Positions 1,226 to 64,000 of a stretch of 64,000 nucleotides of DNA are shown piece after piece. The notes under the pieces were generated by a model. That model was not told the DNA's origin. It saw only the letters and a program-made list of their open reading frames with translations, and did no database searches. The translations under genes were made by a program, and so were the position numbers. The stretch is taken from NCBI GenBank assembly GCA_905178155.1, contig CAJINV010000006.1, positions 4,223,760 to 4,287,759 on the forward strand. The letters are read 5' to 3'. The DNA is from Amoebophrya sp. A120. Taxonomy: Eukaryota > Protista > Dinoflagellata. The first letter of the stretch is position 1. Each line of letters starts with the position of its first letter.

Positions 1226-4200
1226 TCATCTGATCGCGAGATCATTACAAAAATCTCGATAGCCCACCACCGCTTCCTCCACATTCACCAGATGCCGCAA
1301 CGTCGGTCGCCCGTGCGGGCAGTTCCAGGGCTGCTCCAAAATCGCGAGATTTCCCACAATCTGCTCCATCTCCCGGTTACTCAATTTTTTCCCGATCATG
1401 ATCGCCGAGCGGCAGGCCTTGCTCGCCATAATCGTCCACACCTTCTTGGGCCGCGGCACCTCGGCTGTGGTGCCCTGGAAGGAAATGGTTGCGATGTTTT
1501 TGGCCTTGTTTTCCGGCCCGTTCTCTACTTCCTGGTCCTCGTCGTCCATAATCTTATCAAATGCAAACATGTCTGGGTCTGGAAACTTGTAAAAATGCTG
1601 AGTTGTGAATAGTGAATTCTCTGTGATGCACAGCCAAGCATGAGAAATGTTTGCGCGGCGTAATAGTGTTGCGCTTCCCGCATGGCAAGCTGCGTTCTGC
1701 ATGACAAGAAACGCGGTCTCTTCTTGGACACGCATCACAAACTCTTCAGTCATGCGAGACAGGTATGACACACCTTGTATCTTTCCAGACATCCAGGGAT
1801 ATTTGCAATACATAAATCTCCTCACACAGCAAGTCCTTGTCCGGATCGTCGTTGTCCAGATCGAAAGTCTATCAAATGCAAATTTCGATCTGGGTCTGGA
1901 AAGTTGTAATGTTGTAAAATGTGCATGATGAAGATGTAGTTGAAGAAACTTATTTCTTATGCAGGATGAAAGCATGACAAGATGACAGAACGCTTTCTCA
2001 TACGCACTCCGCAAGAGATGAAACTGCGTTTTTGTACAAAACAAGAGAGAGTACGACTTTTGATGTCTCGGTCATGCAATACAGATTTCACTTAGATTTG
2101 TAAGATTAAGTGTAAAATGTAAGGCCAGCATTACAAGTTCCAGCTTTCCAGACTCATATCGATATTTGCAATGCATAAAGTCCCGCCACTTTCTTCCAAA
2201 ATCGCCAACAGGTCCTCCACGTCCGCCACGTTGAACACAAACCCCTTGCTATCCTGAGTAAAAACGTTCTCACCCCAGAGCCAAGATTGGAAATCTGCTA
2301 CACAAATCAACAAGCTACTTTGGCTGGTGCGCATAACAAGTCCTTTCTTGGCATCACAGTGTAATCCTGTCTAGCTAGTGCTGCCGCATCACAGATCTAC
2401 TAGCATCTCATGCTGATATGAGCATCACATCAAATTTGCAAACACAGCTAGAAACTGCTTCTCATCAGGCTCCGCATGAAAAACATTCGAAAAGCATGCA
2501 GATAATTCGACACATGACAACCCTGAGCGGTGGGGACAACTCTGTAGTTTTTGCAAATGATACTTGCAGCTGGGTACCGCGTGGAGTAGGTATCAAATGT
2601 AAAAATGTCTGGGTCTGGAAGATTGGAAGACTTGTCATGCATATTTTGCATGACCTATGACACCTGTGATGCATGTCTTACCATCACAGATTTTTAGAAC
2701 CCTTCCTGATGCCTATTTCGCATGAGAAATGCCCTCTCCGCGTAGCACAAACTGGGCTCCTCTTGCTGGTCATGCAATGCAAATTTTTTTAGAATCCAAA
2801 AATAGCATTACAAGTTGCATCCTTCCAGACCCAGACATATTTGCAACGCATAGTAGGCACCTTTTCCCAATTTCGTTTTCCTCCTCAAACCTCAAATCGA
2901 ACCCGTTTTTCGCAAACACGGTTTTCGCAAACTCGTTCGCGATCACCTCCTGCGCCTATGGGTGTGTCAGAATCGAAATTGACAAAATCGAAAAACTTGT
3001 GATGCACAAAATCGATATCAGTTGGAGCCTCAGTTTCCAAGTGGCGCATGGCAAATTTCGGGAGCACCCAAATCCAGTCTGTCATGCTGTTTGGGCAAAA
3101 AAGTCTGCTCCTGTCATGCTACTCTGGCAGCGCATTGTATACCCCTAAACAGGCTTGCAATCGGTCTCATTTGCCTGCTCCCCAATACAGGCCATCAGTG
3201 CCCTACATTTTATGCATCACAAATCATTTCGATTATGTCGATTTCGATCCTGACACATCCATAGCGCCGGCGGCAGGGATAACTGGATCGGGTTTAACAA
3301 CTGCTGCGAGTCGATTTTGTTTACGCGGTTCAGGTATCCTCTGCAAAAGTATCGTACTCGTATAATAAATGCAAGTCTTGCATTACAAATCTTGTTTCCA
3401 AGGCAAATCTGCATTACAAGTCTTATTTCTCACGCTGAGGAAATTTGTCATGCATTTATACGAGTGCGATACTTTTGCAGTTCATATCAAGTACTCAAAA
3501 CGCTTTTTCTCATCGCAGGCATGCTGGTCGAAGATGAACAGTTCTTGTTTGTATGATCCCAGGATGAACCCCAGGTTGAACTGCCCATGCACCCGGACGT
3601 GCTGAAAACAAGACTATTGTGAGGAAAAATCCCCCCTCCCCATATCGAAAGGCACCCTTTTGAAAATTTGCGATGCTGATTTGTGGCCACAGATCAGGTC
3701 TGTCTTGCAGGAGAGCAACGCCAGAGCTTCCGCCGCTTGACGCAGGCGATTTGCAATGCTTTTGCGCCAACAGGGCAGACGTCTGCCATGCGGAGCGCCC
3801 ACTTCTAGCCTGCCCCTTCCAGGCTTTAGATCTCCCTGCAGTCCTCTACTGCAAGACAGAGCTGATTTGTGTAGACAAATCCCGCAACACAGATTGCCAC
3901 TTTGACATGGGAAGGGGGAATTTTTCCTGTTCATAAAGATTTGTCGAAGTTCTGGAGTCTGTGCGGGTTGTTTTCCTCGGCAGAGAGGATTTCGAGCTCG
4001 CTGCGTATCCCGTGTGAAAACGTCCCCACAACAGAGTCATCAAGATGGGAATACTGCAAGACAAATCCTGGACTTTTGGGGCTACCGCATGACAAATTTG
4101 TCTGCGCACTGTATCTATTCGGGCCTAGCTAGTCTCGTCGACGCGGCATCACAAATCCATTCTGTCGTGCTGATTCGCGAATTACAGATTTTATTTTCCA

Positions 4201-7200
4201 ATCACCACTAGAAAACGCCTCTCAACATGGAGAGCCGCATGAGAAACATCCTCAGCATGCAGATTTGCATGACAATCTTGACGGGGTGGAAACGTTTTTC
4301 CAAAGGATACCGGGCACGACCGCGTTGTCTTGCCCCGCGAAAAGCACGTCGCTGTCCAATTGCGTCACGGACCCTCCTGCTTATCAACAGGAAAAATCCC
4401 CCCTCCCCATACTGAAAAGGTATATTTTTGGAATTTGTGATGCTGATTTGTGTTCACAAATCGCGTCTGTCTTGCAAGAAGACAACTCCACAGACAACCG
4501 CCGCGTTGGACAGGCGGTTTGTCATGCTGTTCGGCCTACAGCGCGGATGTCATTCATGCTAAGTGCCCAGGCCAAAACCCCTCTACTCACACTTAGTATG
4601 GGCCTGCAGTGCTCTCCAGCAAGACAGCTCGGATTTGTGTACACAAATCTAGCATCAGAAATTTCATTTTGATATGGGGAGGGGGGATTTTTCCTTTCGA
4701 TACTGCTCCCGCGCCGTTCATGTCGTTGTCAGTGCTGTTGTAGTTGTTCCCGGGGGCCCAGGAGGAGACTTGGGTCAAAGCTCCGCACTGGTCCGAATCA
4801 AAACTTTGCTGGGACGAGTCGTGGTTTGATATTATTGCCAGCGAATTTGTAGCCAGGCTCGAGGACGTCGCGGAGGAACCAAACACCGGGAGTGCCAGCA
4901 GCCCTTGTTTGAACTTTTCGAGCTCTTGTTGTTCAGAGCAGCCAAGAACGCCAGCGTCTTCAGAAGTAGGTGACAGGAGTTTATCACTCTGGTCCCCTAG
5001 TACAACTCCTTCCATGAAATGCTGGGGCGACGGCCGCGCTCCCTCAGGTCCGTTTATTTCGCCTGGGACAAGAAGATGATCCTCTGCGAGTACTTCTACA
5101 CAGCAACTCGGCCTTTCCAATTCCGCCCCCTCGGCTTGCATGATCTCGGCGAAGAGCTTTTCCAAATCTGCAAAATCAACCTCCGCTGCGACGCAAGATT
5201 CATCCACCGTAGTAGAGAGCGCACGGGCGGTGGTCGACGAGGACAATGAAGGCTGTACCACTCCTACTATCGCAAGAAAAAAGTGTTTCACCGTAACGTA
5301 CTCCATCACAGGTTTGTTGTACATGACAGAGAAAATTTGCCATGCAAGGTTCCTACGGGAAAAGACAGCTAAAAACTCACTGCCTTGCATGTGTAGCAAG
5401 ACAAACCCTCGTCCTCGGATGCATTTTCTGCATTGCAAGTTTACAGTGAAACAGTTTTTCCCTGCGATACCTACTGCTCCTGCTGACCCAGTTCTTGCAC
5501 CAGCAACAGCTCCTGCCCGTACAGGTGGCGGCACGAGAGATGAGAACATCATAGCGCCAAATTTATCAAACGGCTCGACGTTCTTTGCACCCGCGTTTTT
5601 CGCGCCACTTTCAACATCTTCACCTTCCGGAGCTGTAGGAGCGTTCTTGCGAGGATGAATCATAGCTCCGACGTTGTCCCCGTCAGCAGAGCTTTTTCTC
5701 CTCTTCACCCCACTGTCCACCCGCACAGGGTATTCTGGGTAAAAATGTCCCCACGCGCATAATCAAGTTGGTAATTATCTGCAACACCAGTCTGCAAGGT
5801 GTTGGGAGCTTCTGCATGACAAGTTTGTTCCATCTGTAGAAGTGTAGTGGTGTTTATTCGCGAGGATAGAAGCCGCATCACAAAGACGCAAGCTGATGAT
5901 CTTGGTGCTAACAGCATTTTACAAATCCCAGAACACGACTCCAAATTCCTCTCAAGCAGATGCGCATTACTGATGTAAAGTAAAAGTTCCTGTCGTTGCA
6001 AAGCTGCATGACACCTGGGGGGTCGACGTGGGGACGTTCTTCCTCACGATACGGGAGTCAAATTTCTCAAGGGAGTCGCCACACGGAAATTTGCATTGAG
6101 GTCGCTGCTTGAGCTTGAGGAGCTCGAGTTCAGCATGGAAATCACGTCGGTGAGCAGCACGCCACTTATGGGATTCCCAAACGTTACATTCTCAACTGTT
6201 ACATCATTTGTCATGCAAAATGAGCGTCAACATTCACATAGTCAAGCTACTTCGCATGACAAATTTTAGAAAGGCTAAAAAGCGCCTAAATCTGTGCGGT
6301 ATTTGTCATGCTACAGGTGCAACACGGGCGCAACCTCCCCTCTTTGACTTTTGCCATTCTTGCATTACAAATTCATGTAACAGTTGAGAATGTAACAGTT
6401 GAGAACCCCATACCACTAGCGTGGAGGTTCGGATCCTTCTTTTTCTTTTTCTGCAGCAACTTCTTGTTCCCCTGAATATCACAACTCGTGGCCCCAGAAG
6501 GTGCGCCTCGATTTTTCTCTTTCTTCACCTTCTTCGACTTTCCTTCGCGGCGGCCCTCGTTTTTCTTCTTTTTACCACTCTTCGCAGTTTTATAAAGGTC
6601 CTCCCCTTTATTTTTCATTTTCATCTTCTTTTTCACGACCAATTTTTGTGGCCGGATGATCTTCTTCGGGCGGGAGGGCTGTGGCTGAGCTGGCTGATTA
6701 TCTAGCGCAGCGCCTTGTTTGTCATGATCGAAAACATCGCTTTTGCCTTCTCCCAACAGCTTCTTGTCGTTCTCTTCGAACTGGTCTAGATCTAGATCGA
6801 GTTCTTCGTCCTCCTTGGCAGCAGATTTGTTACCTGACGCTCCGCGTTGTTCTACTACTCCTCGCAGTTTTTCATCATGATCTGCCTTGTCTTGTTCGTC
6901 GTCTTCTAGAAGCTCCAGAAGATCTTCTTCATCTTCACTCTCCTCTTCCTCGTCACAACTGCTGCCATCACTGCTACTACTGCTACTGCCGTCCGAGCAG
7001 TCATCGCTTTCTGGACTGTCTTTGTCAACTTCCGCGTCAAGAAGTACAACTTTTCCGTCTACTCCTGATGTTCCTTCGCTAAGACCCGCGCCGGGTCCAG
7101 CTGTGTAGTCGACCGGGTGGTCTGGTGCTTTTTCTTGCAATAAATCCTCTTTTGCAGGAGCACCAGGACCACCACCTGAAGAGGTGGAACAAAAACCGCT

Positions 7201-10200
7201 AGAAGTAGTACCAGCAGCAACGACCCCAGCTGCACTGTGCGCCCTCAAAATCGCAGTCAGGTCCGTTAGCTGCACTGCGGCGGGGGTTTTTGCTTTTTGC
7301 TCTTGGTGCTCTTGTTCTACTTTTCGGTCATCATCTTCGTCGTCCATGTCGATTTCTACGATCGTGTCCTGGTAGCTGCTCTTGTTGTAATTCCCCCCCA
7401 GCCCCTCAGAAGTTATTAAGTCAATGGTCTCCTGCACGCCGGGATTTCTGCTACGATTCGGCACGGTGTTGAAGCTTTCTAAAATTTCTTCAGGTTCTTC
7501 TTTCACGATTACACTCGGAGCGCGGTCGTCGCTGCTCACGCTTTGCGCATCGTAGTCGTCGCGGAGAGGATGACTGCCTTGCTGATTTACATGTTCCACG
7601 TTTCCAGCAGTTGAAGCTTTTGCAACAAGGGTAGTGCTACTGACTGCTGCCGACTCCGTCTTCCCCAGGCTGCTGCTGCTGCCTAAGCCTAACAAACTAC
7701 TCAGGTCGGTCAGCTTCACACTGCTGGAAGCGGCAGCGCCCGGGCGTACGGAATTTGCTGCAGAGGTAGAAGTTGGAGCGACAGGATCTTCATCTTGCTT
7801 CGGCTTCGCGGTACTAGAGGAAGATGCACCATTAGCCGCTGCGTGATCTCTTAAATCCGCGTCCACCTCGACGACCTCTTCTTCCTTCGTGCAAACCTTC
7901 GCGAAAGCCTCCAGCACCTCCTCCGGCTCCTCCTTCATAATCACGCTTTCCTCATCGTCGCTGAGGTCATCATTGTCGCCGCCCCGAAGCAGCACAGCTG
8001 ACGCTTCTTCTGCAAGAACAACCTTTCGCTTCTTCAGCGCTGGCGACTGCTCCTCGTGTGGTCTTCGTGGGTCTTCAATCTCTTCTTCGTCCATCACGAC
8101 CTGCGGTCGTTGTTGGTCCATTTTCTCCGCGGGGACTTCTTCTTGTTCTACGTCCACACTAAAATAACCGGGCTCCTTGTTCCCCTCCTCCTTCACCGCA
8201 CTACGCGGGTCGAAGCAGTCCAAGCGCCCTTTATGGGAGGTCAGGGCCGTGCTGGACAAGAACATCACCTCCGCCTTATTCTCGTGCTTGTTCTGCACGC
8301 CGGGGGGCTCTGCGGAAACGGAGTTATTTTATCCTGAGTAAAAACGTCCCCACCCCAGAGTCAAGATGCGAAAGCCGCTACACAAATCCCTAAGCTTTGG
8401 CTGTCGCGCATGACAAATTTGGGCTCGCAGTGTAGCCGTGTTTAGCTAGTGCAGCAGCATCACAGATCCAGTTTGTCATTCTGATTCGAGCATGACAAAT
8501 CTCAAGTCACCACTAGAAAACGCCTCTCATGGGTCTCCGCATGAGAAACATTTTAAGCATACAGATTTGCATTAAAACTCTGGGGTGGGGACGTTTTTAC
8601 AGAGGATATATTTGACGTTTTGTTCATCTCCGGGTTTGGGGAGGACACCGATACCAACGCTGCTGGTGCTTCTGCTTGCTCCTCTGCTTGTACTGCGAGG
8701 ACCTCCGCAAGATTCAACATCTGCGGCGCGTGGATAATTTTTCCGTCTGCCAGAACTATCCGGAGTAAAAACGTCGCCACCCTACAGTCAAGATGGGGAA
8801 TCTGCTGAACAATTCAGCCAGCTTTGGCTGAATTGTTCAAATTTCAAAACACCACTAGAAAAATTCTTTCCATGGGTCTCCGCCGCATGAGCAATATTTT
8901 AAGGATGCAGCAGATTTGCATGACAAGTCTGGGGTGGGGACGTTTTTACATGGGATAAGAACTGGCACTGCTTCATCTTCTTGTACTATCTTCTCGGGAA
9001 GTAGATCCGCGTCGTTTCTTTCCTTTTTCTCGTTGTCGACCTCAAGAACAGCGTCCATAAGCGGCTCCGCAGCAGGTGGACGAGCCACACGACCCTGGCC
9101 ATCATCTACTTCATCACTCGACGCAGCGAAATTCATCAGCGGGAGCACCGCGTTCTTGTAGTTTTGCCGGTTGTTTAGAGTTCCGCCAAAAGGATAAGCA
9201 CACCACGATCCGGCCGTCGGTTTTTTCCCCACGACGTCTGACCCCGGGACGTGCAGCTTCATCCAATTCACCACTTCCCGGCAGATCAGCGCTTCGTGCT
9301 TTAGGTAAATCGTCTTCTTGTCCGGCGTATCCAGTGCAAATGTGTCTGGGCCTGGAAGAACGCAAGTCTGTCATGCTTATCTCACATGACTCTTGAATCT
9401 GTAATGCGTGAGCAGCAGGAAAAAAGCCTCTAGCCTGAAAATGCAGGCTGTCATGCGGAAAGCGAAACATAAAAGAGCCCCGAAACTTGTCATGCGTGGC
9501 TGCGTGTCCGTGTCGCAAGTTCTTTCAAGACCCGGTCAGATTCCAATACGTACGGCGTGATGTTCACGTCCACATCATGGTTTGCGCACTCCAAATTCAG
9601 AATCGCGACGGGAAAGACCTGGCCCGACGCGTACTTCTTGAATTCTTCGTTTACGGTTTTCAGTATTTTCTTCGTATGACAGTGCACAACTACCCCCCTC
9701 TATTTTTGCATGAACAGCAATACAAACGCCAGCGACTCTGGAGCTTGTGCATTACAAATTTATGTAAACTTACTGTACGTACTTTGTGGGCAGCTTTCGA
9801 AATTTGTCATGCACAATTAGTGACACACGGAAGCAATTGGAGTTGAGATTTTGCATGAGAAATGAGAACGAGGGGGACTTCTTGTTGTGCACTGTCATAC
9901 TTCGGAAAGGGGTCGCACAATCGGTAGTTGACGAAGAAAATCTGCCAATTTTTTGACTTCTTCCCACCGTTCGACTGGGAAACAAGCCCGGTGATGCGGA
10001 AGTTGTTGTTGTTGGACGGGCTAAAAACTGTGGCTTGCTGTTCGTGTACGAGTGGTGGTGGTAAAAGCGCACCACCAGCAGCCGTCCCGGCTAGAACTAG
10101 TTCCTGCTCGGTAGTTTCATGTTGAACTACTTGAGCGGGGGGCAACATCATAGTAGAGTTCACCAGGCCTCCGCCCCCTGCTGGACCACCACCAGCACCT

Positions 10201-13200: not shown

Positions 13201-13357
13201 TGACGTCCTTCTGCCTCTTCATCGGTGCCGCGACGGCCTTGCTCGCCGTCTTCAAAACCGATTTTGTGCTGCCGGCTACTGGTCCACTAGTGGCTGATGC
13301 CTTGGAAGCCGCAGCAGCCTTGGACTTCATCTTCGCCGCGGCCGATTTCGGCGGCAT
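1226..13357 (-). CDS. PMS2: MutL-family DNA mismatch repair endonuclease PMS2/PMS1-like; 21 exons, about 2198 aa after removing 20 introners
   Basis: N-terminal GHKL motifs: ICTNQVIISLDTCVKELVENSLDA, DDGIGI, RHCTSKL, TFGFRGEAL, GTKIEITNLF..TPVRR and DVNITPDK. C-terminal motifs: LFIFDQHACDEKKRFE, ACRSAIMIG and WNCPHGRPT. Introners at 1555-1814, 1870-2177, 2250-2562, 2591-2852, 2957-3263, 3335-3486, 3615-3935, 4006-4309, 4382-4702, 5268-5469, 5731-6051, 6167-6412, 8330-8608, 8757-8957, 9328-9552, 9675-9899, 10241-10549, 10605-10955, 11891-12169 and 12214-12462. Removing each plus 5 bp leaves 6597 nt, a multiple of 3. Confidence 0.92.
1555..1814. mobile_element. Introner, family A (TIR TATCAAATGCAAA..GTCTGGGTCTGGAA), the most abundant family
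   Basis: TAT...ATA ends, inverted termini, 5-bp direct repeat AATCT (1550-1554 and 1815-1819). Excision joins ...LCEEI|MDDE... in frame. Confidence 0.9.
2250..2562. mobile_element. Introner, family B (TIR TATCCTGAGTAAAAACGTCCCCACCCC)
   Basis: Direct repeat CTTGC on both sides. Related copies at 4006, 5731, 8330, 8757, 11891, 15657, 35391 and 39076. Confidence 0.88.
2957..3263. mobile_element. Introner, family E (TIR TATGG..GTGTCAGAATCGAAATTGACAAAATCGAAA)
   Basis: Direct repeat GCGCC. Related copies at 10241, 10605 and 30915. Confidence 0.88.
3335..3486. mobile_element. Introner, family D (short, about 150 bp; TIR TGCAAAAGTATCG.ACT.GTA)
   Basis: Direct repeat TCAGG/TCAAG. Related copies at 21604, 21937, 30691, 33817, 40183, 42120 and 54473. 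Confidence 0.88.
4382..4702. mobile_element. Introner, family C (TIR GGAAAAATCCCCCCTCCCCATA)
   Basis: Direct repeat CTGCT. Related copies at 3615, 20305, 27259, 39764, 58929 and 63221. Confidence 0.88.
5268..5469. mobile_element. Introner, family F (TIR GCAAGAAAAAA(C/G)TGT..GT(A/T)AC)
   Basis: Direct repeat CCTAC. Related copies at 19061, 21282, 28620, 60143 and 63945. The 207-nt excision is 3n and stop-free, so the ORF track reads through it. Confidence 0.85.
6167..6412. mobile_element. Introner, family G (TIR with GTTACA(A/T)TCTCAA repeats)
   Basis: Direct repeat CCACT. Related copies at 39398-39653 and 60434-60685. Confidence 0.85.
9675..9899. mobile_element. Introner, family H (TIR TATGA.AGTGCACAAC)
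   Basis: Direct repeat CTTCG. A related copy at 47384-54153 hosts the copia element. Confidence 0.85.
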
Positions 13358-54600: not shown

Positions 54601-55532
54601 AAACAACAGGCCACGCCAAGATGTAGGTCAAGAAAACCAACCGCACCGAGGCGAGTCGAGGCGGCTAGATATTCATCCGAACACCGAGCTGCTGAGATGT
54701 CGATAGATCCTGATATTGATTATTCTCAAATAGAGATTGCCGATTTATCCACATCGTTTCTTGATTCAAGGTACAGACTCATCAATATCTTGATTCTCCG
54801 CGCTCCAGTATGCTGCCTGTGTGGAAGAATCTCAGATAGTCCGCGTGCGAAGGTAAAGGCCACATCTTAATATAGTAGATGTGGACTTTGTAGAACAAGA
54901 CGAAGGTCCGGCCAGATCCAACCGAGAGAAGGCGCTAGTGGGTCACAAAAGCTAGCACCTTGAAGCGCCTGATCGTGACAAAAAACGGGAGGTGAGCTCT
55001 GCCGCAAGCTGCTCCAGGGCGGAGGCAGCGAAGTGTCTACAGAGTTAAGGGACAAGCACCTAACATATATGGTGCCCGATATGACCCTAAACTCGCCCAA
55101 GCCCCGGACCGTCCCAGAGTAGACAGCCGCACCACAGAGGGTAAGCTTGTGAGCAGACGGAGCGCACCCGGCCGCGGCTCGAAGAGAAGAAGCTGCAACA
55201 GTGTACCTCAGTGCCCGCGACTCGAAGAGATGTAGTTGCATTATGGCGCGATTGGTACAAGGAACGGGAGACAATGCTGGCCGATTAGGTGTTTCTCCTG
55301 AGAGCGGTGCCTCCCTGCTCGTTTCCTCCGGGTGGTCTGCGACATCATGTTCCACTTGATAGCAATATGTATAGCTAAAAACAGGTGTGAAGGATCCTCC
55401 TCCTCCTCTAATGCTGTTTTACCTTGGAAAGGAAATGCGTCATGCATAATTGCAATTAGTACGAGTGCGATACTTTTGCACAGGATATGTCGCCCGGGTG
55501 GTGTCGCCGTAAGGTCGGAGTGCGGAAACTGA
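45698..55532 (+). CDS. Hypothetical single-pass membrane protein whose gene spans the copia insertion; 3' end uncertain
   Basis: MGTTT(SAPT)x3 start. TM segment AFIAGIMSVLAMIVV|VIVVYF is completed after removing the degenerate introner 46560-46770. Further introners at 46934-47218, 47384-54153 (ECSS|GEEDQ in frame), about 54311-54426 and 54473-55487. Confidence 0.55.
47529..47872 (+). repeat. 5' LTR
   Basis: TGTTGGATAG...CTTCTAACA, preceded by TSD CATGC. Confidence 0.97.
47875..47886 (+). promoter_or_regulatory. Atypical primer-binding site, complementary to own LTR (47734-47746)
   Basis: CTAGTCGCACCT lies 2 nt after the LTR and has no TGG start. It pairs with AGG(T)TGCGACTAG in the LTR. 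Confidence 0.6.
48321..49190 (+). CDS. gag: Copia Gag with C-terminal CCHC zinc knuckle
   Basis: IPPYDGNPKGWSDWRFKV (copia gag N-terminal motif) and CHKCKQLGHVRKDC immediately before TGA. The ORF is open from 48108. Confidence 0.9.
   Translation: MVDTNQVEKYSIPPYDGNPKGWSDWRFKVQALLQMLGILTLIENFLKTPSIDGWKDDTRAIGAQFFARLCVALTGDALEVVKKKTVVCISTAWGALLLEFDKRTKFARMRSLKDLLTTRKDKDQTVREFVQRKQNIFRDDLGGEVFRSELMTFGCFYNLGNAFDSFIMPHVIQDKPDNDNLLKLAEECESVLKDGGTEEDTAKPASLNLTQADHKAIAAEVVAQKGKKGGRWVNKNQHPYKNNNQKNNKGGGKGGKGDQQKGKGGGGDKSKIKCHKCKQLGHVRKDCPN
49191..53642 (+). CDS. pol: Copia Pol (protease, integrase, reverse transcriptase, RNase H), in frame with gag
   Basis: VVDSGASHHM; HERFGH..C..C; RSDND, NGVVERWN; YKARLVALG, SLYGLRISPRRWF, YVDDC; FSDSDFAG, STCEAEY, TDNQSA, ADPLTK. 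The frame is open from the codon after the gag stop. Confidence 0.95.
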   Translation, partial: RSWPGSDENCQISHAAKRRKTDVANVHVCETGSTSGQSSNVTCNQKLQSPSVYNVEVLESKTNVFETAPISNQCVLETASISDEKASICKIEDLPFARDSKLKGTTCKIEAEKSLLDSARVKNVKVPKMKENPLQKMPILHGVSRLYDPSNLKRKANPHEMAKNKNYEVADSARKAEGNCMDWTYFNLCKFVGESCNGVKDQQIFDFADTPKGFTVLVHGHHQGRDKKNENQEAQDWFGDWSKEREKGQTDQNGEKSAGAVSSLTFALLSKGNGKSAHGITIRPDGTQTTAVVDSGASHHMTGDLSCFQIVFWDDPVTLTVADRTLDTPAYRGYFHHNSLGLMGGLYHPDAKLFLVSVSLLNDENDCRVVFEGRDALYLQKKKTGFKIPMRRDTLTNLPQIDFAFHSLSELDTAGDLQNGKSRAAWSEPAFVNLTRADRLRQHERFGHFHIDGLEYGRCPLCDLAKSRQEGCKSERPEHCKPKAWLDQVDWDHTYGYPLGLDGEKFLLSGVETFHGWVENYPHREKDEAWKGLREWCLEVGKPKRVRSDNDPTFRGEKSDWRKYCLKQSPPIEPTTSAPFTPQRNGVVERWNQTSKNALRANMIGVDPRLWPYCSKYIAWTWNRLARKEQKSPFEKVHDRAPSLKYFKKFGVLCYARKHVTKSTDLGALDVRYERGAFLGYSKNSCYLVGVWRDDKRTKVGLRFTVIENRSCKFDESCTIADIDDLREKNRGTFVPFAAPDKLRVSNMPDPLVAPSGSHEPDQDAPRDQGDSGPNGATGDQQVEEGGKAVEGGKEESAAQAEEEVVIPEAEELDEPPARPKPKVVKKKRKQKPKPAVVVNNKKGRPKGSKNKPGSKKPGPKPKAAEAGNVFQLPDDFDFGRDLDEYHAKRIEEEGEEVFAHVVSLTRAQILRDPDAPKYIEADDVERLRLLAKECWTVDEKPQKGDEVVPSCVIYTKKRCGTYKARLVALGNLQSKELCGEIYSPTISHAASRALLVDAAANGKRIKFFDISNAFICASLGDERVFVRLPKHWSTDPRGDVVRLLKSLYGLRISPRRWFDTYRKTLEELGWKMCEREPGLFRKGVLTLSVYVDDCVMSGDTEEILDKEMGKILDKFPGKVIPPKAKPGEKGCEVYDLLGATLEYNASKKTMRIHMAEAIDRVLKKFNMVDCRGVATPVLPGRQLPEIQTTEVDTSAPETKFPLRSLVGSLQYIACMCRVDIVYAVQRVAREVANPTPQAVKAAKRILAYLKATREIGSEYSPKAEEDFRTVYTKVTKEASRDCPDLCAFSDSDFAGCTVTLKSTSGSILYYRGCPVAWSSKRQTVRASSTCEAEYVAIHDTIKMCLSQGWSDWFMETEGETLPLIFTDNQSALSLSKSSIITKRSKHIDLRYHIVRDHCQDLCFVPTKVNKADPLTKGLPGEKYLSLFKTDPKAELHTVRAFHVSTDLRPIVLEPATVMMLTAKLSKASGLTIQIEGKPYDFA
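53711..53721 (+). promoter_or_regulatory. Polypurine tract
   Basis: GGAAGGGGGAA abutting the 3' LTR. Confidence 0.9.
53722..54065 (+). repeat. 3' LTR
   Basis: Near-identical to the 5' LTR, followed by TSD CATGC. Confidence 0.97.
54561..55408 (+). mobile_element. About 850-bp non-LTR retroposon-like insertion with (TCC)n tail nested in family D introner 54473-55487
   Basis: Flanked by 9-bp TAATGCTGT, ends GGATCCTCCTCCTCCTC, and splits an otherwise 150-bp D element. Confidence 0.7.
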
Positions 55533-56044
55533 GAAAGAATATCAACTGTAAAAGTGTCTGGGTCTGGAAATTTGTGATGCATGTCAGTGAAAAGAAAGCA
55601 CACTGTAATGCGCCGCCAGGCATTACAAATTTATCCTTGGCTCCCTGTTGCGTATTCCGCATGACAAACAGCGTTTTTGCATGACAGATAAGAGGAGCTC
55701 TTGCTGGCCACGCAATACAGAGCTCCGTGTCATGCGCGACTAGCATGACAAATCCCGCCTCCTTCCAGACCCAGACATTTTTGCATTTGATAAAGAACGG
55801 ACTTGATGAACAACATCGTCAAGGGATTGTAAGGAGATCAGATGAAGATGAAATTAAAAACCGAAGTCAACGAAAACGGAAATTTGAAAAGCTGGAAAAT
55901 TAATATGGATGTTGAAAGCACGGAGGATAAGAAGTGTTGTGAACGAGGAAGTGAAGCGCTGCTCTGGTATACTTCTGTTTTGCCGCATCAACAAAAGAGC
56001 GCATCGATTTGTCTACAACATAATCGGGGCATGGAACGCCAGTT

Positions 56045-57176
56045 TTGAACATTCGTTTTGAGCTAAGAGCAACCGGCGATCTTTGTCGTGCATTGAAAAC
56101 ACCAAACATAAAACATCGAACAGGTACGTTACCTCACCCTGGTACCTCCATCGGGGGAGCTTCATGCAGACAAGAAAACCAGACACGAAGTAGAGTTATT
56201 GCGAGGAAGAAGAAATACGGTTGAAACAAGAAAAGAAAAGCTTCCAGTTTGTATCAGGTAATTGCGAGGAAGAATTCCAGTTTGTATCAGGTAAAGCTTT
56301 TTGCTTGACGCGACCATGAGGTTTTTATGCACGACCTTCTCCTGCATGCTCTCAGTAGATCACTGTCTCTTCCTGTTGCTGAGCATGAGAAATGCGAACA
56401 TTTGAAAAACAGGTACTGCTACTGAAAAACGTCGTTACTGACCTGCGGGGGAGACGCAATTCTCCGGTATAGAAGTTGTTTTGCTGCACCCAAGCGCATA
56501 TCAAATGTAAAAGTGTCTGGGTCTGGAAGATTCTGGGACTTGTGATGCATGTTTTGCATGACCCAGGACGTCTATAATGCACGCCCTAGCATCACAGATT
56601 TTTAGAGGGCTTCCTGATGCCTACTCCGCATGACAAACGCCCTCCCCGCGTAGCACAAACGAGACTCCTCTTGCTGGTCATGCAATACAGAGTTTCTTAG
56701 AGTCCGAAGTTAGCATCACAAGTTCCACTTTTCCAGACCCAGACATTTTTGCATTTGATAGCGCATTTGTCCACAACTGAATCGGCGCGTGGAATGGCGG
56801 TTCTGAACATTTGGAAAGAGCTATCAGCAACCGATCTTCGTCGTGCATTCAAATAAACATCAAAAATCAAACAGGTACAGTACCTTACCCTAGTACCATC
56901 GGGTAACTACTTGCAGACGAAAAAACAGACACGAAGTAGAGTTGTATATTGCGAGAACCCCAGCGTCAGAAGAGGAACAAGAAAAGCTAGAAGAGAGAAT
57001 TTCACTATGTCTCAGGCATACTATAATTTGGGTTGACACCGACACGCATGAGGTTTTTATGCACGTGCATACTCTCAGTCTCAGTAGATCCGGTCTTCCT
57101 GCGCATGAGAAATGCGAAAACTATGAAAACAGGTCATGAAGAAAAACGTCGCTACCTACCTGCGGGGGAGACGCAG
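56045..57176. repeat. Diverged direct duplication (about 400 bp x2) flanking introner 56499-56760
   Basis: Shared blocks GTCGTGCATT, AACAGGTAC, CAGACACGAAGTAGAGTT, CATGAGGTTTTTATGCACG, CTCAGTAGATC, GCATGAGAAATGCGAA and ACCTGCGGGGGAGACGCA at about 56045-56458 and 56805-57176. Confidence 0.75.
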
Positions 57177-58272
57177 CGAGACGGAAAAACCTATGGTGTG
57201 ACGGACAAGTAGTGGGGAGATGAAGATTGGCTTCTGCACTTCTGGAGGATGTTGAGTGGGAACAGCCGAGCCGGAATTTCTGCTACTTGTCAGCACTCAT
57301 TGAACTCCATTTGTACGATGCATTGCTACTCTGTCAAATAAGAATTGCCACGCAACTGTCACTATGTTTCGAAAATCAAAATGTACCTTACAAAGTCTGA
57401 AATTAATAACAGTTTCTATAAAAAAACAAATAACGTACACTATGACCATGTACCAAATATGACGAATTTACAAAATTTTGTTTCTCTTACTACACCTTGC
57501 TTTTATCACGATGCCAAATAAAAAATGGACACTACACCTTTGTTTACAACTGTAAAAAGCTGACTTCATCCTTGATGCAAGATATCGATAAAACCCTGTA
57601 CCAAAAATTTCAATGAGCGCACCGCGAACAAAATTAAAACTTGTATACGACCTGCACTACTGTAGTAGGGCGGAAGACGGATTGGAAATAACTGCGACCA
57701 AAGTATTCTTGTACGATTTGGAGGAAAAAAAGAAACAAGAGCCCAGCTCCTTACTTGGCCTCGCGTCCTGCAAAGGCACGTATTTGCTATTGCTTCTGTC
57801 GCATCCGTGTCTGCTTTGTTCCCTGAGTTTTTTCCCTGCGATTTTTTCCCCTTTCGATCTGGTTTCGGGTGACGCGGTGCAAGGCGAGATTTTCGAGGTT
57901 GATCATCCAGGATCTTCACAAGATTCGCTTCGAACCTGCGTCGGTCTTCCACATGTCTGTGCAGTCTGTTTTAGGTAGAGAAGTTTGTGGAGGCAGGTAA
58001 TACACGCTGCTGCAAACAAGATCTTGATCACTGCTTTCGTTGTCTACGCCTAGTAAAATTGATTCGGCGGAGGTCTAGGTCTTCAAGAAAAACTTGCGAT
58101 CTCGTACCGCCGGTACGCATGCAACACTTGTATCTTCTTCGCACGAGGTTTGCAGTTCATTTCGCCCCGGGATTGGGTCGTGAAAAAGAAGACGCACTAT
58201 AGTAGGCTCCGTGGTCATGATGCGCAATCAAACATAATTAGAATTAGACTGGAAATAAATAAGCCTTCCATC

Positions 58273-61200
58273 ATGGTCGTCGTTCGCAGAACCCATAGCC
58301 GCCGAGGCGGATCGCTTTCTTCGGCCGCGAGATGCGCCGGGGCTTGTCACGATGATCTGCAATGTCGTGGTCGACGGGTTCTTCAGTTGCTTGTGTGTCT
58401 GGTCGTGGTCCAGCAAGGCGCGGCAGAACCGGCCAGCAGTTGGAATGGCAAAGGAAACATCGTGATCCCGGTTCACTTATCAAATGTAAAAATGTCTGGG
58501 TCTGGAAGGATGCGAACTTGTGATGCGTGTTGCGGATCATACAAAAATCTGTGTTGCATGACTTGCAAAAGGTCCCCATTTCTAGCCATGCCGGGGGGGG
58601 ATTTCTCATGCAGAATAGGCATCACCAAGGGGCTGCAGAACCTGTGATGCTAGGCCCTGCATTCGAGACTTGGCGGAGCTTGGAAAAACTGCATGACAAA
58701 TCTCAGAATCTTCCAGACCCAGACATTTTTACATTTGATATCACTTTGCGAAGGAGAATAAATCTTCTGGCGTTCTTTTCCACGGAACCGCACAAAGACC
58801 AATACTACCGCAGGAGAGACAACAAGTATCGGAGGAAAAGAACGTTGTGGCCGATCTCCATGATCCCTCCCATACCGCCTCCACCACGCTTTTACTCGAC
58901 CAAGCCCGGCCGCTGGTCCAGGTGACGGTATTGCAAGGAAAAATCCACCCTCCCCATATTGAAAAAGTACCTCCTGAAAATTTGTGATGCAGATTTGTGA
59001 CCACAAATCCTGTCTGTCTTGTGAGAAGGCAAATCCAGGCTTTGTGCCACGCTATGCAGGCGATTTGTGATGCTGTAAGGACTACAGGGCAGCCGTCTAC
59101 CGTGCTAGGTGGCTACACCAAAAGGCACCTAGCCAGGCTTGCGATCTGCGTGCAGTCCTCTACCGCAAGACAAATCTGAGCTGTGTACGCCAATCCAGGA
59201 TGACAGATTTCCTTTTCGATATGGGGAGGGGGGATTTTTCCTTTTGATAGACGGTGGGCACCAACCAGAACCTCTCCCTCGTTCTGGACTCCCTGAGTCC
59301 GAGTGTGACGCTTTTCACGACGGAGAGCAAGGTGAACCAGTGCGGGGTGAAGGCGGATGCGTGTTTCCAGTTCGCAGGCCGGGGAAATGGCGTCGAGGAT
59401 GAGAACGACCAACAAGGGGTGCTGTGCCACTTGGAAAAAGACACAATACCGTGCAGACCAGGTACTATTTTAGTAGAGGACACTGTATCTGGTACTGAAC
59501 ACCGGCTGGTGCTCTCCGTGATGCGAAGTGCTGCATGACACTCACGGTCTTGCATGACAAATTAACAGGTTCCGGTGTTTTTCTCTCCTGCAAGGAGCCG
59601 TTCCTGCCCCCGGACGCGTTTTTCACGGACTCCCACTACGGCGAATCCTAGCCATTGTGAATATTTGTCAGGGTGGTCCTCTGGAAAGTTGAAATGCTTC
59701 TTTAAGCAGGGTACCTGTAGACGACAGTATTTACTACACACAACACTGTCACAGAGTTTCTACTGCATGGGTCTGCAGCGGTGCCGCTGTGCCCGGGGTC
59801 TGCAGCGGTGCCGCTGTGCCCGCAGCCCCGGTGCCTGCGTGCACGAGAAATCGCGTTTGTTTTCCCTGGCGGACCTGCTCTTCCGCAACCTGCATATTAG
59901 ACAAACACAATTTATTGCAGTCTTATTACACTCGCATTGTACAACTCTATTTCCAGACCCAGAGACGTGTTTCCACGGGATAAACCCATAACCCTGCCCG
60001 TCGACGGCAACGACTTGACAACCACCAGCGCCGAGGGCATTGCCGGGAAGTTTTCTCTCCGCGAGTCGGTTTTCACCATCGCAAACGCGCCCATGAGGTT
60101 TGTGAAGGGCTTGGACGTAGGTAGTAGTTCTGACACGGTTAGTATGACAGGAAAAAAGTGTTACAGTAGTTACACATTGTGTAGTTGCAAGACCGGCAAC
60201 ACAGACAACCTTTCTCATGCAGGAAAGGCTTGGGAGCCTCGTTTCCTTCCTGTTTTCCCTTATGATCTTCGCATTACAAGTTTTCTCTGCCACACAGAGA
60301 AAATTTGTGATGCAGAAACTACTCCAACAAATGTGTACACTTTTTTCTCGTCATAGTTAGAAGTAGAAGGACTTCTTCGGCGACAAGAGAAACCGCAGAG
60401 GGTACCGATTCTGGCGAGTATCAATCAAACCCCTATAACCTGCTCAGGTGTTACAATCTCAAACGTTACAATAGAATCTAGAATTTGTGTTACATGATGA
60501 GCATGACAGACTCGCGCAGCGTTCCACCTTTTGCAGTACAAATTTCGCCAGATTGTAGTGCGGTTTAGGGGTCCGGAACTTGTCATGCGCAATCCTATGA
60601 GAGTTGGCTAGATCATGCACTCTCGCATCACAGATTTCCATATTCTATTGTAACGCTTGAGATTGTAACACCTGAGCGGGTTATAACCCCGAGCCCAACT
60701 TTTTCGCCGGTTTTTTCGGGCTCGCCAAAGCGTCCGCTGGCTGCCGCGACCGGGGGTCGGGAGTCTGGGAGAACATTTTGCGGGCGGTGAACGGCGAGAA
60801 GCGGAACTTGCGAAACGAGGATCCGGAGTGGCGTTTGAAGCTGGTACCGCCGAAGCATTCGCTGTTTTACGAAGAGAGGGGGAAGGAGAACTCGTATCTG
60901 GAAATCGTAATGAACAAGCAAGTTCCTCTACTCGAAGATCAGGAAGAACAAGATCGCCAAAAACATCGTCCGGCCATTTCTAGCAAGAACAACGACCCAG
61001 TGGTCCTCCTCTACTCGGAACCCCGACAGCAAGACAAGTACATTCATTCTGCCCGGTTCGGGGAGTTTTTGATGTACAACCTCCAGATTTGCGGCACGAT
61101 ATCAATTGCAAATAGGTCATCTGGGTCCTCTGGACGATTGGTGCAAGGTTTTTGTCATGCAAGTTTCGCATCACCGCACAAGGTTTGGAATCATGCGCCG

Positions 61201-64000
61201 GGTTCTAGCATCACAAGTTTTGAGAAGTAGCCTTTTGTTTCTCGATGTTTATTCTGCATGAGAGATTTTGGGTTATCGGGTAACCAAAAGTAAGTGGGCA
61301 TTCGCATTTTTGCTGGTCACGCAATACAGATGTTTGAGTCGAGCAGACCTAGCATAAGAAACCTTGGAGCGGTCTTGTGCAGACCCAGACGTATTTGCAT
61401 TGAATACACCGACATTTTCTACAACCTGTCCTCCAACTGGCTGGTGCAAATCGACACGCGTTCCGTCGTATCAAATGTAAAAATGTCTGGGTCTGGAAGA
61501 ATCCGAAATTTGTTATGCTGTTTTTGCATGACACAGAATGTCTGTCATGGAAGCCCAAGCATCACAGATTTTTAGAGGCCTTCCTGATGCCTAGTCCGCA
61601 TGACAAAGGCTCTCCACGCGTATGCGGCTGCGGATGCGGCCGGGTGGTAGTTAGGAAGTGGAGCAAGTATCCACCTAGGGGTATTGGCAGAGGCTAAATC
61701 TGTTCTAACGCCCAGGTATTGGCAGAGGCTAAATCTGTTCTAACGCCCACCCGCCAGGAGTAAAATGGTTACTACTACTACTACTACGCGTAGCACAAAC
61801 CGGACTCCTCCTGCTGGTCATGCAATACAGAATTTTTTAGAGTCCAAAGTTAGCATCACAAGTTCCAACCTTCCAGACCCAGACATTTTTACAATTCATA
61901 CGTCGGCGTGACTCTGCCAAAAATCCTCTACGACCGCGTGCTAGCGCAGTTGGATTTGGCGAACGTGTTTGATTGCACGTCGACCACAGGTGAAAGCAGC
62001 ACTCTAAAAATATCTGGAGCACATATTAAGCCAATTTTCCCCTGCCGGATACGCGACGGTGTGACGGCGCAGACGGGGTACCGGGAAAATTTGAAGCAAA
62101 ATCTCCCGATTTTGTCTTTCGCGCTGGAGGATTTGGGCGAGGAGAGTTTTTATCAAATGCAAAAATGTCTGGGTCTGGAAGAATGCGAGTTTGTCATGCT
62201 TGTCTGGCGTGACTCGACAATCTGTGTTGTATAGGGACGAAAAGGCCCCCTTACCTGTCATGCAAAAACGCAGTTTGCCATGCGGAATACGTAAGACATG
62301 GCAGCCAACAAATTTGTCATGCATAGGTGCGCATCTTTGCAGTGCGTTTATCATTCACTTTTAGCATTAGACCCAGACATATTTGCAATCCATAGTTTTC
62401 TCACCTCAACACCAGCCTCGGAGCAGCTGCAGCCGTCTTCTTCTGACGACGGAAGAAATATCGTCGGAGATGAAGTTGAGGTGGATCAACATCACCATGA
62501 TGGCCATAATCAACATCTGCTAGATGAATATTACCAAACCCCCGCAACTAGAGGTACATCAGCTGCAACTTCTTCTACCCGATTGCAACTCCCGCTGGCT
62601 CATTTGGTGCTCTGTGACGAAAGCAGTGCTAAAAGTGGAAGCGCTTCTCCTGCTCGTGCTATCTCTTGCTACCTCGCGCTCAGCTGCGCGGGTGGTTGTG
62701 AAAGAAATAATGGGGATCATCTTGTTCACAGCGGAATAAATGACGGCTCTAGAAGAAGAAGTAATGGAGGTGACAGCAGCAGCGGTGCAGAAGCAGATAC
62801 GCTCCAGGACAATGACAACGATGGGATTCCGCAGACCGGGTCTTTTCTCTCCGACGACGGCTCTGTATCAATTGCAAATGATATGTCTGGGTCTAGAAAG
62901 CTGTGATGCTGTATTGCGCATGACTGCAACGCTTGCAGTTGCAGCCAAGCATGACAAACTTTCGGGCCGCTTTCTGCTGCCCGACGCGCATATACGAGTT
63001 GCGTTATTTTGCGTAACAAGGGAAGGAGCTGCTCACTTGCTGCTCATGCAACACAGGTTTCCCAGGAATGCAAGACACGCATTACAAGTTCCACCTTTAT
63101 TGCAGACCCAGACGTATTTGCAACGCACACTTCGACGACAGCATCGATTTGTCGGCGCAGCACATCTCCTTCGGCAGTCTCGCGGTGTCCGCATTTGAGA
63201 AGCTGGTTTTCAAGCAGAACTATCGAAAAGAAAAATCCCCCCTCCCCATATCAAAACGAAATTTCTGATGCTGGATTTGTGTACACAAATCCGAGCTGTC
63301 TTGCTGGAGAGCACTGCAGGCCCATACCAAGTGCGAGTAGAAGCGTTTTGGCTTAAGCACTTGACATGAAAAACGTCCGCGCTGTAGGCCCAACAGCATG
63401 ACAAACCGTCTGCACAGTGCGGCGGTTGTCTCCGCAGTTGCGTTCTTATGCAAGACAGACACGATTTGTGATCACAAATCAGCATCACAAATTTCCAAAA
63501 ATATACCTTTTCAGTATGGGAAGGGCGGATTTTTCCTTTCAATAAGAACCGGGTAGGGTTTATGCTCCTTACTCGACAAGACGAAGGAACTACATCGAGT
63601 TTCAACGACGAGAACGCGAAGACCAGTCAGTGGGGGCACACACGACCAGGCGCTGTAGTTTCAGTGGCCGAGGAGCACCACCAGGATCTTCCACGTGGTA
63701 CCAGTGGTAGTTCTCCAACCGCGTCTACCGTCGGTATTACCCCCTCATTCGACTTGCAGCAGGAGCAGCAGCCAACAGAAGGACCAAGAACTTTTCACAT
63801 CCCCATCGCGGCGACGCCTTTCGCCGATCCTCGTGGGGAACAGTCACGACCAAAAATGGCAGTCACTCGTCGTCCGTGGCAAGAACAGGTTCAAGGCACA
63901 GGGCAACCTCCTGCTCCTGCTAGTGCTCCGACTTCCACAGGCGGTATGCAAGAAAATAACCGTGTAAAAAGTGTAAGTATAGTGTATCATGATGCAGAAA
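58273..64000 (+). CDS. Secreted or membrane pepsin-like (peptidase A1 fold) protein with degenerate catalytic motifs; runs off the window
   Basis: Hydrophobic leader, VQVTVGTNQNLSLVLDSLSPS (lobe 1), AGFFGLA, WLVQIDTRSVGVTLPKILY (lobe 2), LPILSF. Introners at 58478-58740, 58929-59249, about 59465-59590, 59649-59982, 60143-60355, 60434-60685, 61100-61406, 61469-61900, 62151-62394, 62866-63129, 63221-63544 and 63945 onward. Confidence 0.6.
61623..61785 (+). mobile_element. Short retroposon-like fragment with (ACT)n tail nested in a family A introner
   Basis: 7-bp TSD ACGCGTA (61616-61622, 61786-61792) and an internal 35-bp tandem duplication. It is absent from the sibling element at 56499-56760. 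Confidence 0.75.

Follow-up and report, generated by a model that had tools for sequence, protein, structure and literature searches.

Inverted-repeat introners of Amoebophrya sp. A120 and a probable fixed register for their removal from RNA

Non-canonical introns are removed by the tens of thousands in Amoebophrya, with no U1 snRNA detected. The window analyzed here, a 64,000-nt stretch of contig CAJINV010000006.1 of Amoebophrya sp. A120 (positions 4,223,760 to 4,287,759), poses two questions: what are the elements that interrupt its genes, and what directs their removal? An earlier note on this DNA, made from the sequence alone, had counted about 70 introns with terminal inverted repeats (TIRs) that obey one rule, TAT...ATA ends between two copies of a 5-bp repeat. 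That description holds, with 69 complete elements and one more, at 63945, that runs off the window end, together making up 41% of the window DNA. Both TAT and ATA are present in 62 of the 69; in transcript orientation, the seven exceptions start with TAC, TAA, or TAG or end with ATG (twice), ATT, or ACA. The first scan, which required TA[TC]...[AG]TA ends, a 5-bp repeat with no more than one mismatch, and aligned 30-nt inverted ends, returned 54 pairs, of which 3 were internal or overlapping sub-matches, versus none in each of three shuffles; the total of 69 adds diverged copies recognized by TIR similarity and by eye and one exposed by RNA. The proposed 5-bp duplication is likewise borne out, since 58 of the 69 elements have at most one mismatch between the flanking repeats (0, 1, 2, 3, and 4 mismatches in 45, 13, 7, 2, and 2 elements, respectively). 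Median TIR identity is 24/30, and lengths are mostly 143 to 351 bp, with outliers of 70, 432, 471, 1015, 1222, and 6770 bp; the shortest, at 21070-21139, is a doubtful case, with 4/5 repeat mismatches and a stop-free sequence that stays in frame. Summed read depth is high over the elements. Short, non-coding, and present in many copies with TIRs and a constant target duplication, they are of the MITE type, i.e., non-autonomous TIR DNA transposons. The whole set and some of its members are as follows.

1555..63544, no strand assigned: the 69 TIR introners, all flanked by 5-bp direct repeats (from the scan, with RNA contigs for part)
30915..32136, plus strand: 1222-bp element with a GC-rich tandem interior; a 1104-bp relative in related locus L020 is 68-78% identical
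46560..46770, plus strand: diverged element that starts TAA, with 3/5 repeat mismatches and a TIR of 25/35; spliced
59649..59982, plus strand: diverged element that starts TAG, with a weak TIR (16/30); spliced
62866..63129, plus strand: element ending in ACA, not ATA; spliced, with upstream positions 3-4 retained

BLAST clustering of 68 elements gave 8 multi-copy families (20, 9, 8, 6, 3, 2, 2, and 2 members) and 16 singletons. Their TIR cores, which the earlier note took to be unrelated, are related. The first 15 TIR bases, TAT(C/G)NNNTGNAAAA, are common across families, as is a subterminal motif, GCAT[GCT]A[CG]A, which has 203 matches in 17 kb of elements versus 16 in 38 kb outside. Its orientation in elements is near-even (268 antisense versus 239 sense), as expected of a transposase site, and the sense copy is absent from 24 of 151 elements in related loci. 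Of five ordinary GT-AG introns, four carry the same motif within their final 45 nt, versus 1.1% of background windows; the inferred long intron of the WD40 gene (see below) lacks it. Borne in both orientations, the motif may be a branch site or a binding site; undetected elements confounded a test of the motif against a downstream YAG in DNA outside elements. An invariant A at -7 was rejected as a branch point, the window pattern being broken by two GTA ends.

A metagenome scan provided 151 related loci (683 kb; those listed are on JACKZZ01 contigs), which hold the same element families at ~70-93% identity. TIR pairs in these loci yield the duplication length with no presupposition of 5 bp: 261 of 350 are perfect at a repeat length of 5 and none of 350 at 6 bp, and identity per position is ~0.89 at length 5 versus 0.19-0.33 at lengths 2-4 and 6-9.

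The elements are removed at the RNA level, a conclusion that we regard as practically certain. DNA-type contigs traverse them with 0 differences, which speaks against the DNA-level excision that the earlier note had allowed as an alternative, and two sets of shorter contigs from one study, presumed to be RNA because they skip GT-AG introns, skip exactly the element plus 5 bases at 32 or more of the 69 elements. This comparison covered stretches with 42 of the 69, the other 27 lying elsewhere in the window. The contig gap equals the element plus 5 bases in 8 of 8 intervals checked; nine contig joints skip elements, alongside six ordinary GT-AG joints.

54310..59568, plus strand: ordinary GT-AG introns with five different 3' ends, absent from element-skipping contigs; donors all GTA, 4/5 with GCAT[GCT]A[CG]A

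The same excision restores known proteins, as had been proposed, and the window proteins are 100% identical to deposited Amoebophrya A120 proteins. Two such genes are the following.

1226..13357, minus strand: PMS2/MutL-family gene with 20 elements; without them it encodes the deposited 2198-aa protein with 0 differences, in the 4+1 register only
32900..37253, plus strand: WD40 gene with 4 elements and an inferred 1044-bp GT-AG intron (34078-35121); deposited 756-aa protein

Pfam domains of the deposited protein agree with the PMS2 label. The gene that the earlier note labelled AIP1 encodes a WD40 protein, and the PhnW label is unconfirmed, one 65-aa exon having given no Pfam match. Pfam searches with eight single exons and an Rfam search gave no match, and an exact look-up of two window ORFs found neither.

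Where the cut falls within the duplication can be fixed because, in some copies, the two repeats differ. In transcript orientation, the intron consists of the last base of the upstream repeat, the element, and the first four bases of the downstream repeat (N-TAT...ATA-NNNN). Three exact and seven bounding junctions support this register, and every informative junction is a 4+1 mosaic of the two repeats. The exact junctions belong to the following elements.

12214..12462, minus strand: repeats differ at transcript positions 4 and 5; contig piece starts at 12464, with a 40-nt gap; upstream position 4 and downstream position 5 are retained
46934..47218, plus strand: repeats differ at 4 and 5; joint 46932->47223, no slide; intron GT...GG
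61100..61406, plus strand: repeats differ at 4 and 5; contig piece ends at 61098; intron AT...CC

Among the bounding junctions, that of 46560..46770 retains 3 or 4 upstream bases. Of six registers tried for PMS2, only the one keeping four upstream bases gave 0 differences from the deposited protein, and the deposited WD40 protein rules out keeping all five. The evidence consists of assembled contigs, presumed to be RNA, and of deposited proteins, whose independence from such data is unlikely; on this evidence, we consider a genome-wide 1+4-base register highly probable. Because 1+4 bases of the duplicated target leave with the intron, the coding sequence is exactly restored whichever way an element has inserted. 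Under one positional rule, the "variable" sites become a defined substrate, N-TAT...ATA-NNNN, in which U+2, the distance to ATA, and the motif are predicted to matter, and +1 and the last two bases are not; intron borders in the A120 annotation would be corrected by the same rule.

At the true cut, the donors GT, TT, AT, and CT number 30, 15, 13, and 11, and AG acceptors are found in 4 of 69. The claim that no GT-AG stands at the borders needs qualifying in this respect: 30 of 69 introns begin with GT, 4 end with AG, and exactly one is GT-AG, with another having an equivalent GC-AG register. Its substance remains, as the GT/GC...AG ends of U2-type introns occur in an equivalent register in just 2 of 68, and the junctions are therefore not at nearby GT/GC-AG sites. 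In related loci, G occupies +1 in 46 of 151 and AG ends 11 of 151. Selection for GT at the donor was considered and rejected, as the excess of G at +1 in the window (29/68, p 0.009) was not replicated in related loci; no AG selection at the acceptor was seen in the window or in related loci. Neither GT nor AG is required for removal. By contrast, all 256 oriented elements have T at intron base +2, as a spliceosomal donor does, a constancy partly expected from the TIR itself, and ordinary GT-AG donors in RNA start with GTA in 6 of 6. The first T of the element is kept in 256/256 5' ends versus 250/256 3' ends (p 0.03), and the first two element bases deviate once at 5' ends versus 10 times at 3' ends (p 0.011), in a post hoc test with few events and with orientation inferred from ORF length; the second terminal base is A in 255/256 and 252/256 ends.

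The longest element shows how little the interior matters.

47384..54153, plus strand: 6770-bp element, a 228-bp ordinary introner shell plus Copia; joint 47379->54155
47529..47872, plus strand: Copia 5' LTR, 344 bp with TG...CA ends, a single mismatch against the 3' LTR
48321..49190, plus strand: Copia gag ORF with a zinc knuckle (PF00098); its terminal TGA lies in the pol frame
49191..53642, plus strand: Copia pol ORF, 1483 codons stop to stop, with SH3 (PF25597) and RVT_2 (PF07727)
53722..54065, plus strand: Copia 3' LTR, preceded by a purine tract

The shell is 68% identical to 9675-9899 and 74-76% identical to copies in other loci. The pol product carries integrase-type motifs (HERFGH, CPLC, and a D-D-E region) ahead of the reverse transcriptase, and the insert is, by its sequence, a young full-length Ty1/Copia LTR retrotransposon. 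With its own LTRs and its own 5-bp target duplication (CATGC, lying in the subterminal motif of the shell), it is a passenger. The whole is removed exactly as a single 6775-base intron, which shows that the ends suffice; if only the ends matter, the elements can shelter other mobile DNA, such as Copia. The statement that the window has no transposase for these elements stands, but the window does hold a DDE integrase, that of the nested Copia. Absent from the earlier note are this nesting, the constant position of the cut, the T at +2 that resembles a donor, and the inter-family motif.

Taken together, the best explanation, to which we give a probability of roughly 60%, is that these are non-autonomous TIR transposons with an integrase-like mobilizer, cut in the 1+4 register by a relaxed U2-type spliceosome. 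An integrase-like transposase would insert the elements, duplicating 5 bases; the pre-mRNA would be cut 1 base upstream of TAT and 4 bases downstream of ATA; N-TA would stand in for the G-TA of an ordinary donor in the same register, with any base allowed at +1 but only U at +2; and the 3' site would lie at a set distance from the end of the element, independent of AG. Removal by a U2-type spliceosome with relaxed end rules is, on these sequence features, reasonably likely. We would propose only tentatively a splicing machine that has no need of terminal dinucleotides, recognizes TAT...ATA and the GCATNACA motif, and cuts by a ruler at -1/+4, matching the 5-bp duplication of an undescribed superfamily of integrase-like transposons. 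Were the ruler reading true, insertions of any family, orientation, and cargo, up to a whole retrotransposon, would be silent at the protein level.

Dispensable dinucleotides and an immaterial interior length (6.8 kb in the Copia-bearing intron) would also suit a non-spliceosomal endonuclease and ligase that read the terminal hairpin and cut 1 base 5' and 4 bases 3' of the element, a type of hairpin removal proposed for euglenid nonconventional introns (PMC11282704, in the part available). The ends do pair in the predicted fold (z of -5.58 for 46934..47218, and the median TIR identity given above). However, the register is unchanged in spliced copies whose TIRs are weak (16/30 at 59649 and 61100, 12/30 at 62866 and 2250), 61100 with a fold z of just -1.88; the invariant T at +2 is in register with host GTA donors, and the motif is common to elements and GT-AG introns. 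According to the accessible text of Farhat 2021 (PMC7789003), U1 snRNA was undetected in A120, as a hairpin-reading enzyme would allow, but nearly all spliceosomal proteins are present, and the predominant A120 site classes (Table S4) carry T second. We consider the endonuclease unlikely. Excision of the elements from DNA in part of the life cycle, with the shorter contigs being rearranged DNA, is scarcely credible: the RNA status of these contigs is presumed only, and the DNA-type run joints listed are 15 of more than 2000, but these contigs also lack GT-AG introns, are alternatively spliced (56465-57132), and terminate 140-160 bases past the PMS2 stop, the DNA-type contigs cross the elements unchanged, and the 4+1 repeat mosaic at each informative junction fits a fixed RNA cut.

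As to the mobilizing enzyme, no element transposase was found in the window or in the 683 kb of related loci, where there was also no TAT...ATA pair longer than 1.3 kb, no tblastn match to the Copia proteins, and, among the longest matches, no orthologous exon or empty site. TIR patterns had no match in viral contigs or prokaryotic genomes. The resident Copia integrase, acting in trans, would account for both the 5-bp duplication and the lack of a reported A120 transposase. The Copia itself carries a 5-bp duplication and LTRs with 1 mismatch in 344 bases, and TAT...ATA is one transition per end away from TGT...ACA, with TGT or ACA ends seen in 5 of 256 oriented elements; yet this Copia is a passenger within a 228-bp shell, and the elements are without LTR, primer-site, or poly-A anatomy. 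LTR integrases, moreover, process linear cDNA ends and do not excise chromosomal DNA. Mobilization by this enzyme is thus improbable; its integrase region, compared with proteins shorter than 815 aa, had 6 matches, all Copia-like pieces, none named Amoebophrya. The TA..TA-type element ends point instead to an IS3EU/Ginger-type, integrase-like enzyme, for which, by analogy, we see about even chances. In the parts of PMC10045372 and PMC6839031 available, IS3EU/GingerRoot, IS481EU, and Ginger2/TDD have TIRs, TA..TA or TNT..AYA ends, and a fixed short duplication, as here, together with integrase-like DDE enzymes, and are not described as introns; no coding copy was found here. IS3EU/GingerRoot shares the TA..TA ends but duplicates 6 bp, IS481EU duplicates ~4, 15, or 25 bp, and Ginger2/TDD fits in duplication (4-5 bp; 6 in the second paper) but has TG..CA ends (PMC10045372, PMC6839031).

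The elements are introners already described from A120 and known in outline, as the earlier note had supposed, in agreement with the protein identity and with the TAT-start inverted repeats of Farhat 2021 (PMC7789003). Those introners, as far as the available text describes them, have TAT followed by A-rich repeats, direct repeats, a length of ~240 nt, and RNA support, and the window elements likewise show TAT plus an A run, a junction repeat, families, and non-canonical removal from RNA. That text gives 3-5 nt repeats, "variable" splice sites, and an "unknown" border and argues against general transposase mobilization, whereas the duplication here is strictly 5 bp and the register a fixed 4+1. 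In the portion of Gozashti et al. 2025 (PMC12130899) available, the Ginger-like A120 fam38 has a "5-bp TSD, TA/TA Termini," fam19 a TSD of 5 by manual inspection, and fam1 GT, CT, AT, or TT donors in 892 of 1322; automated TSDs there are 2-11, with no common register in the A120 rows, in contrast to the fixed 5 bp here. The fixed register is apparently unpublished: no statement of it, or of Copia nesting, was found in the literature covered, which excluded figures and most subscription papers.

MITE-derived non-GT/AG introns of Fritillaria borealis also have a TIR and a TSD and are removed by the U2-type spliceosome, but prefer AG-AC and AG-AT ends, with U1 conserved, whereas here +1 and the last two bases are free (PMC11282704 and 10.1101/2025.08.15.670264, both in part). 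Introners of Polarella and Symbiodinium, according to the part of 10.1101/2020.10.14.339549 available, take splice sites from the target duplication, as here, but their classes require G[TCA] and AG, so only some targets work. Euglenid nonconventional introns have similar hairpin-joined non-canonical ends with a different end consensus (PMC11282704, same portion).

Retroelement homology in introner families can stem from passengers. The available text of PMC12130899 lists retroelement matches for fam3 (RVT_2, rve, RNase H), fam122 (a 6806-bp LTR call), and fam38 and takes such families as retro-derived or of unknown mechanism; nesting may explain the reported Copia homology, and, by analogy with the window, a nested full Copia offers a simpler reading for some of them. 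Smaller inserts in three other elements are listed below.

54473..55487, plus strand: element of a 150-bp family with an ~860-bp insert between 9-bp repeats (54544 or 54552, and 55409); spliced whole
41080..41550, plus strand: element of a 260-bp family, longer through an insert that contains a (CCAA)n run
61469..61900, plus strand: element of the 260-bp family, longer through an insert that contains a short tandem run; spliced

When the window is scanned for TA[TC]...[AG]TA pairs that are flanked by a 5-bp repeat and whose 30-nt ends match, 54 such pairs are found, versus none in three shuffles of the window sequence. With diverged copies added, there are 69 complete elements, which make up 41% of the window, and one more, at 63945, that is cut by the window end, in agreement with the earlier note, which counted about 70 TIR-bearing introns. 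The rule stated there, TAT...ATA between 5-bp repeats, describes most copies, not all: both TAT and ATA are present in 62 of the 69 and the direct repeats are perfect in 45 (58 have at most one mismatch), while the rest deviate. BLAST clustering of 68 elements yields eight multi-copy families and 16 singletons. The TIR cores of these families, previously called unrelated, are not so: the ends are alike, TAT(C/G)NNNTGNAAAA, and the families have in common the motif GCAT[GCT]A[CG]A, with 203 matches in 17 kb of elements versus 16 in 38 kb outside, often 36-50 nt from either element end. A 70-bp candidate at 21070 is doubtful as an element; 21070-21139 has TIR-like ends, mismatches at 4 of 5 repeat positions, and an in-frame sequence without stops, and is either an element that has shrunk or ordinary exon.

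The elements are real and belong to a class that is already known. Translations of two exons match deposited proteins of Amoebophrya sp. A120 at 100% identity (one is a WD40 protein, the other belongs to the MutL/PMS2 family), and portions of Farhat et al. 2021 (PMC7789003) describe A120 introners with inverted repeats that begin with TAT and direct repeats of 3-5 nt, so that the match to reported Amoebophrya introners stands. The same portions term the splice sites “variable” and the border “unknown,” and state that neither a transposase nor U1 snRNA was detected in A120. Gozashti et al. 2025 (PMC12130899) list 58 A120 introner families; among 56 of the 58 rows, automated TSD calls range from 2 to 11, and “5-bp TSD, TA/TA Termini” is noted for one family, fam38.

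Contigs from sequencing runs were compared over 1000-20990 and 45200-64000; 42 of the 69 elements lie within these stretches and the remaining 27 outside. Contigs of DNA type from run X1 traverse the elements with no differences. Contigs from runs X3 and X5 skip the elements as well as ordinary GT-AG introns and, because of the latter, are taken to behave as spliced RNA, the kind of run itself being a guess. The contig gap equals the element plus 5 bp in 8 of 8 intervals checked, nine joints over elements are listed directly, and at least 32 of the 42 elements are shown to be skipped, which bears out the proposed removal at the RNA level. Likewise, the claim that deleting each element plus 5 bp restores PMS2 holds, as a single frame of 2207 codons remains when 20 elements are removed, and the deposited PMS2 protein lies within it. 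At 56467-57132, splicing is alternative: some contigs have a 666-nt GT-AG intron in place of the exons that surround element 56499-56760, and in others this element and a 258-nt intron are spliced separately.

The position of the cut can be read from copies with differing repeats, where the RNA reveals which bases stay. Three junctions are exact:

46934: joint 46932 to 47223, with no slide
61100: contig piece ends at 61098
12214, minus strand: contig piece starts at 12464

All three retain positions 1-4 of the upstream repeat and position 5 of the downstream one (in transcript orientation); therefore, the intron is N-TAT...ATA-NNNN. Seven further junctions (5731, 10605, 15657, 46560, 47384, 59649, and 62866) limit the cut and agree. 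The same register is the only one of six that matches the deposited PMS2 protein without difference, and the WD40 protein rules out retention of all five upstream bases, although these deposited proteins are probably not independent of transcript data. At this cut, the donors are GT (30), TT (15), AT (13), and CT (11), and AG ends the intron in only 4 of 69 cases. A preference for G at +1, suggested by an excess among the window elements (P = 0.009), was rejected, since 151 oriented elements from related metagenome loci show no such excess (30%). Element 59649-59982 starts with TAG, its TIR is weak, and it contains an internal duplication of 27 bp, yet it is spliced in the same register.

One spliced element carries a complete retrotransposon:

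47384-54153: Copia-bearing element, in which an ordinary 228-bp shell encloses a full Copia

The nested Copia has 344-bp LTRs that differ by one base and a 5-bp duplication; its gag contains a zinc knuckle, and its pol, of 1483 codons, contains RVT_2. A 1788-nt contig in both X3 and X5 passes over all 6775 bases. Since this copy and elements of 1015 bp and 432 bp with other inserts are spliced, the element ends suffice for removal, and other mobile DNA finds shelter in the elements. The Copia/LTR matches published for families fam3, fam122, and perhaps fam38 (parts of PMC12130899) may thus be nested passengers. The text and tables, figures aside, of the literature excerpts on such introns yielded no description of a fixed dinucleotide-blind cut or of an exactly spliced Copia-bearing copy; together, these two make the splicing question directly testable. 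The Copia gag is closed by one TGA (49188-49191) that shares the pol reading frame, which suggests stop-codon read-through rather than a frameshift. Its insertion site (47524-47528 and 54066-54070) falls exactly within the common subterminal motif of the elements, by chance or by targeting.

As to what may remove the elements, we favor a relaxed U2-type spliceosome, for which Fritillaria offers a precedent (parts of PMC11282704 and 10.1101/2025.08.15.670264), over a putative endonuclease that would act on the hairpin; copies with weak TIRs or changed ends (TAG, TAA, and ACA) are still spliced. The cut places the element TA at intron positions +2/+3, the register of ordinary A120 donors, of which 6 of 6 seen in RNA begin with GTA. 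Among 256 oriented elements, the first T has no variants at the 5' end versus six at the 3' end (P = 0.03), and the first two bases show 1 versus 10 deviations (P = 0.011), in a post hoc test with few events. Of five GT-AG introns proven by RNA, four have GCAT[GCT]A[CG]A within their final 45 nt, versus 1.1% of background windows, which fits a candidate branch site. In the related loci, the sense form of this motif is absent from 24 of 151 elements and the antisense form is equally common, which fits a candidate transposase site.

The related loci, 151 sequences (683 kb) retrieved from a metagenome collection with one TIR pattern, carry the same families as the window at ~70-93% identity. With their TIRs paired irrespective of any duplication, a perfect 5-bp repeat is present in 261 of 350 pairs, and lengths of 2-4 and 6-9 stay at background; the target duplication is 5 bp, of fixed length, such as a transposase with a staggered cut produces. 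No transposase for these elements was found in the window, as had been claimed, or in the related loci, and a search with the Copia integrase region found no mobiliser. The TA..TA ends point to IS3EU/GingerRoot, which has a duplication of 6 bp instead of 5; Ginger2 has the 4-5-bp duplication but ends in TG..CA (parts of PMC10045372 and PMC6839031). The elements thus resemble both groups yet belong to neither, and an integrase-like transposase as mobiliser is a lead to which we give about even odds. Locus L020 contains, at 505-1608, a 1104-bp sequence related to the 1222-bp element 30915-32136; this likeness points to a subfamily of long elements, through which an autonomous parent could be reached.

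In run X9, which does not cover the window genes, ~200 raw RNA reads match one element end (14844-14916 and 2591-2624), mostly at 90-95% identity, and their flanks are unrelated. The TIR family seems to be present, as part of an abundant transcript, in a related organism as well. The 1044-bp GT-AG intron inferred in the WD40 gene (34078-35121) is largely a 28-bp tandem array of 18 copies (34303-34806). Between divergent genes, 23200-26450 comprises a 19-bp tandem array and two very GC-rich arms on either side of an AT-rich core of ~900 bp; it lacks clear terminal repeats and matches nothing in the related loci. Up to ~22.7 kb the element-bearing genes are all encoded by the minus strand, and from ~27 kb onward by the plus strand; over the whole window the switch in GC skew coincides with this strand change.
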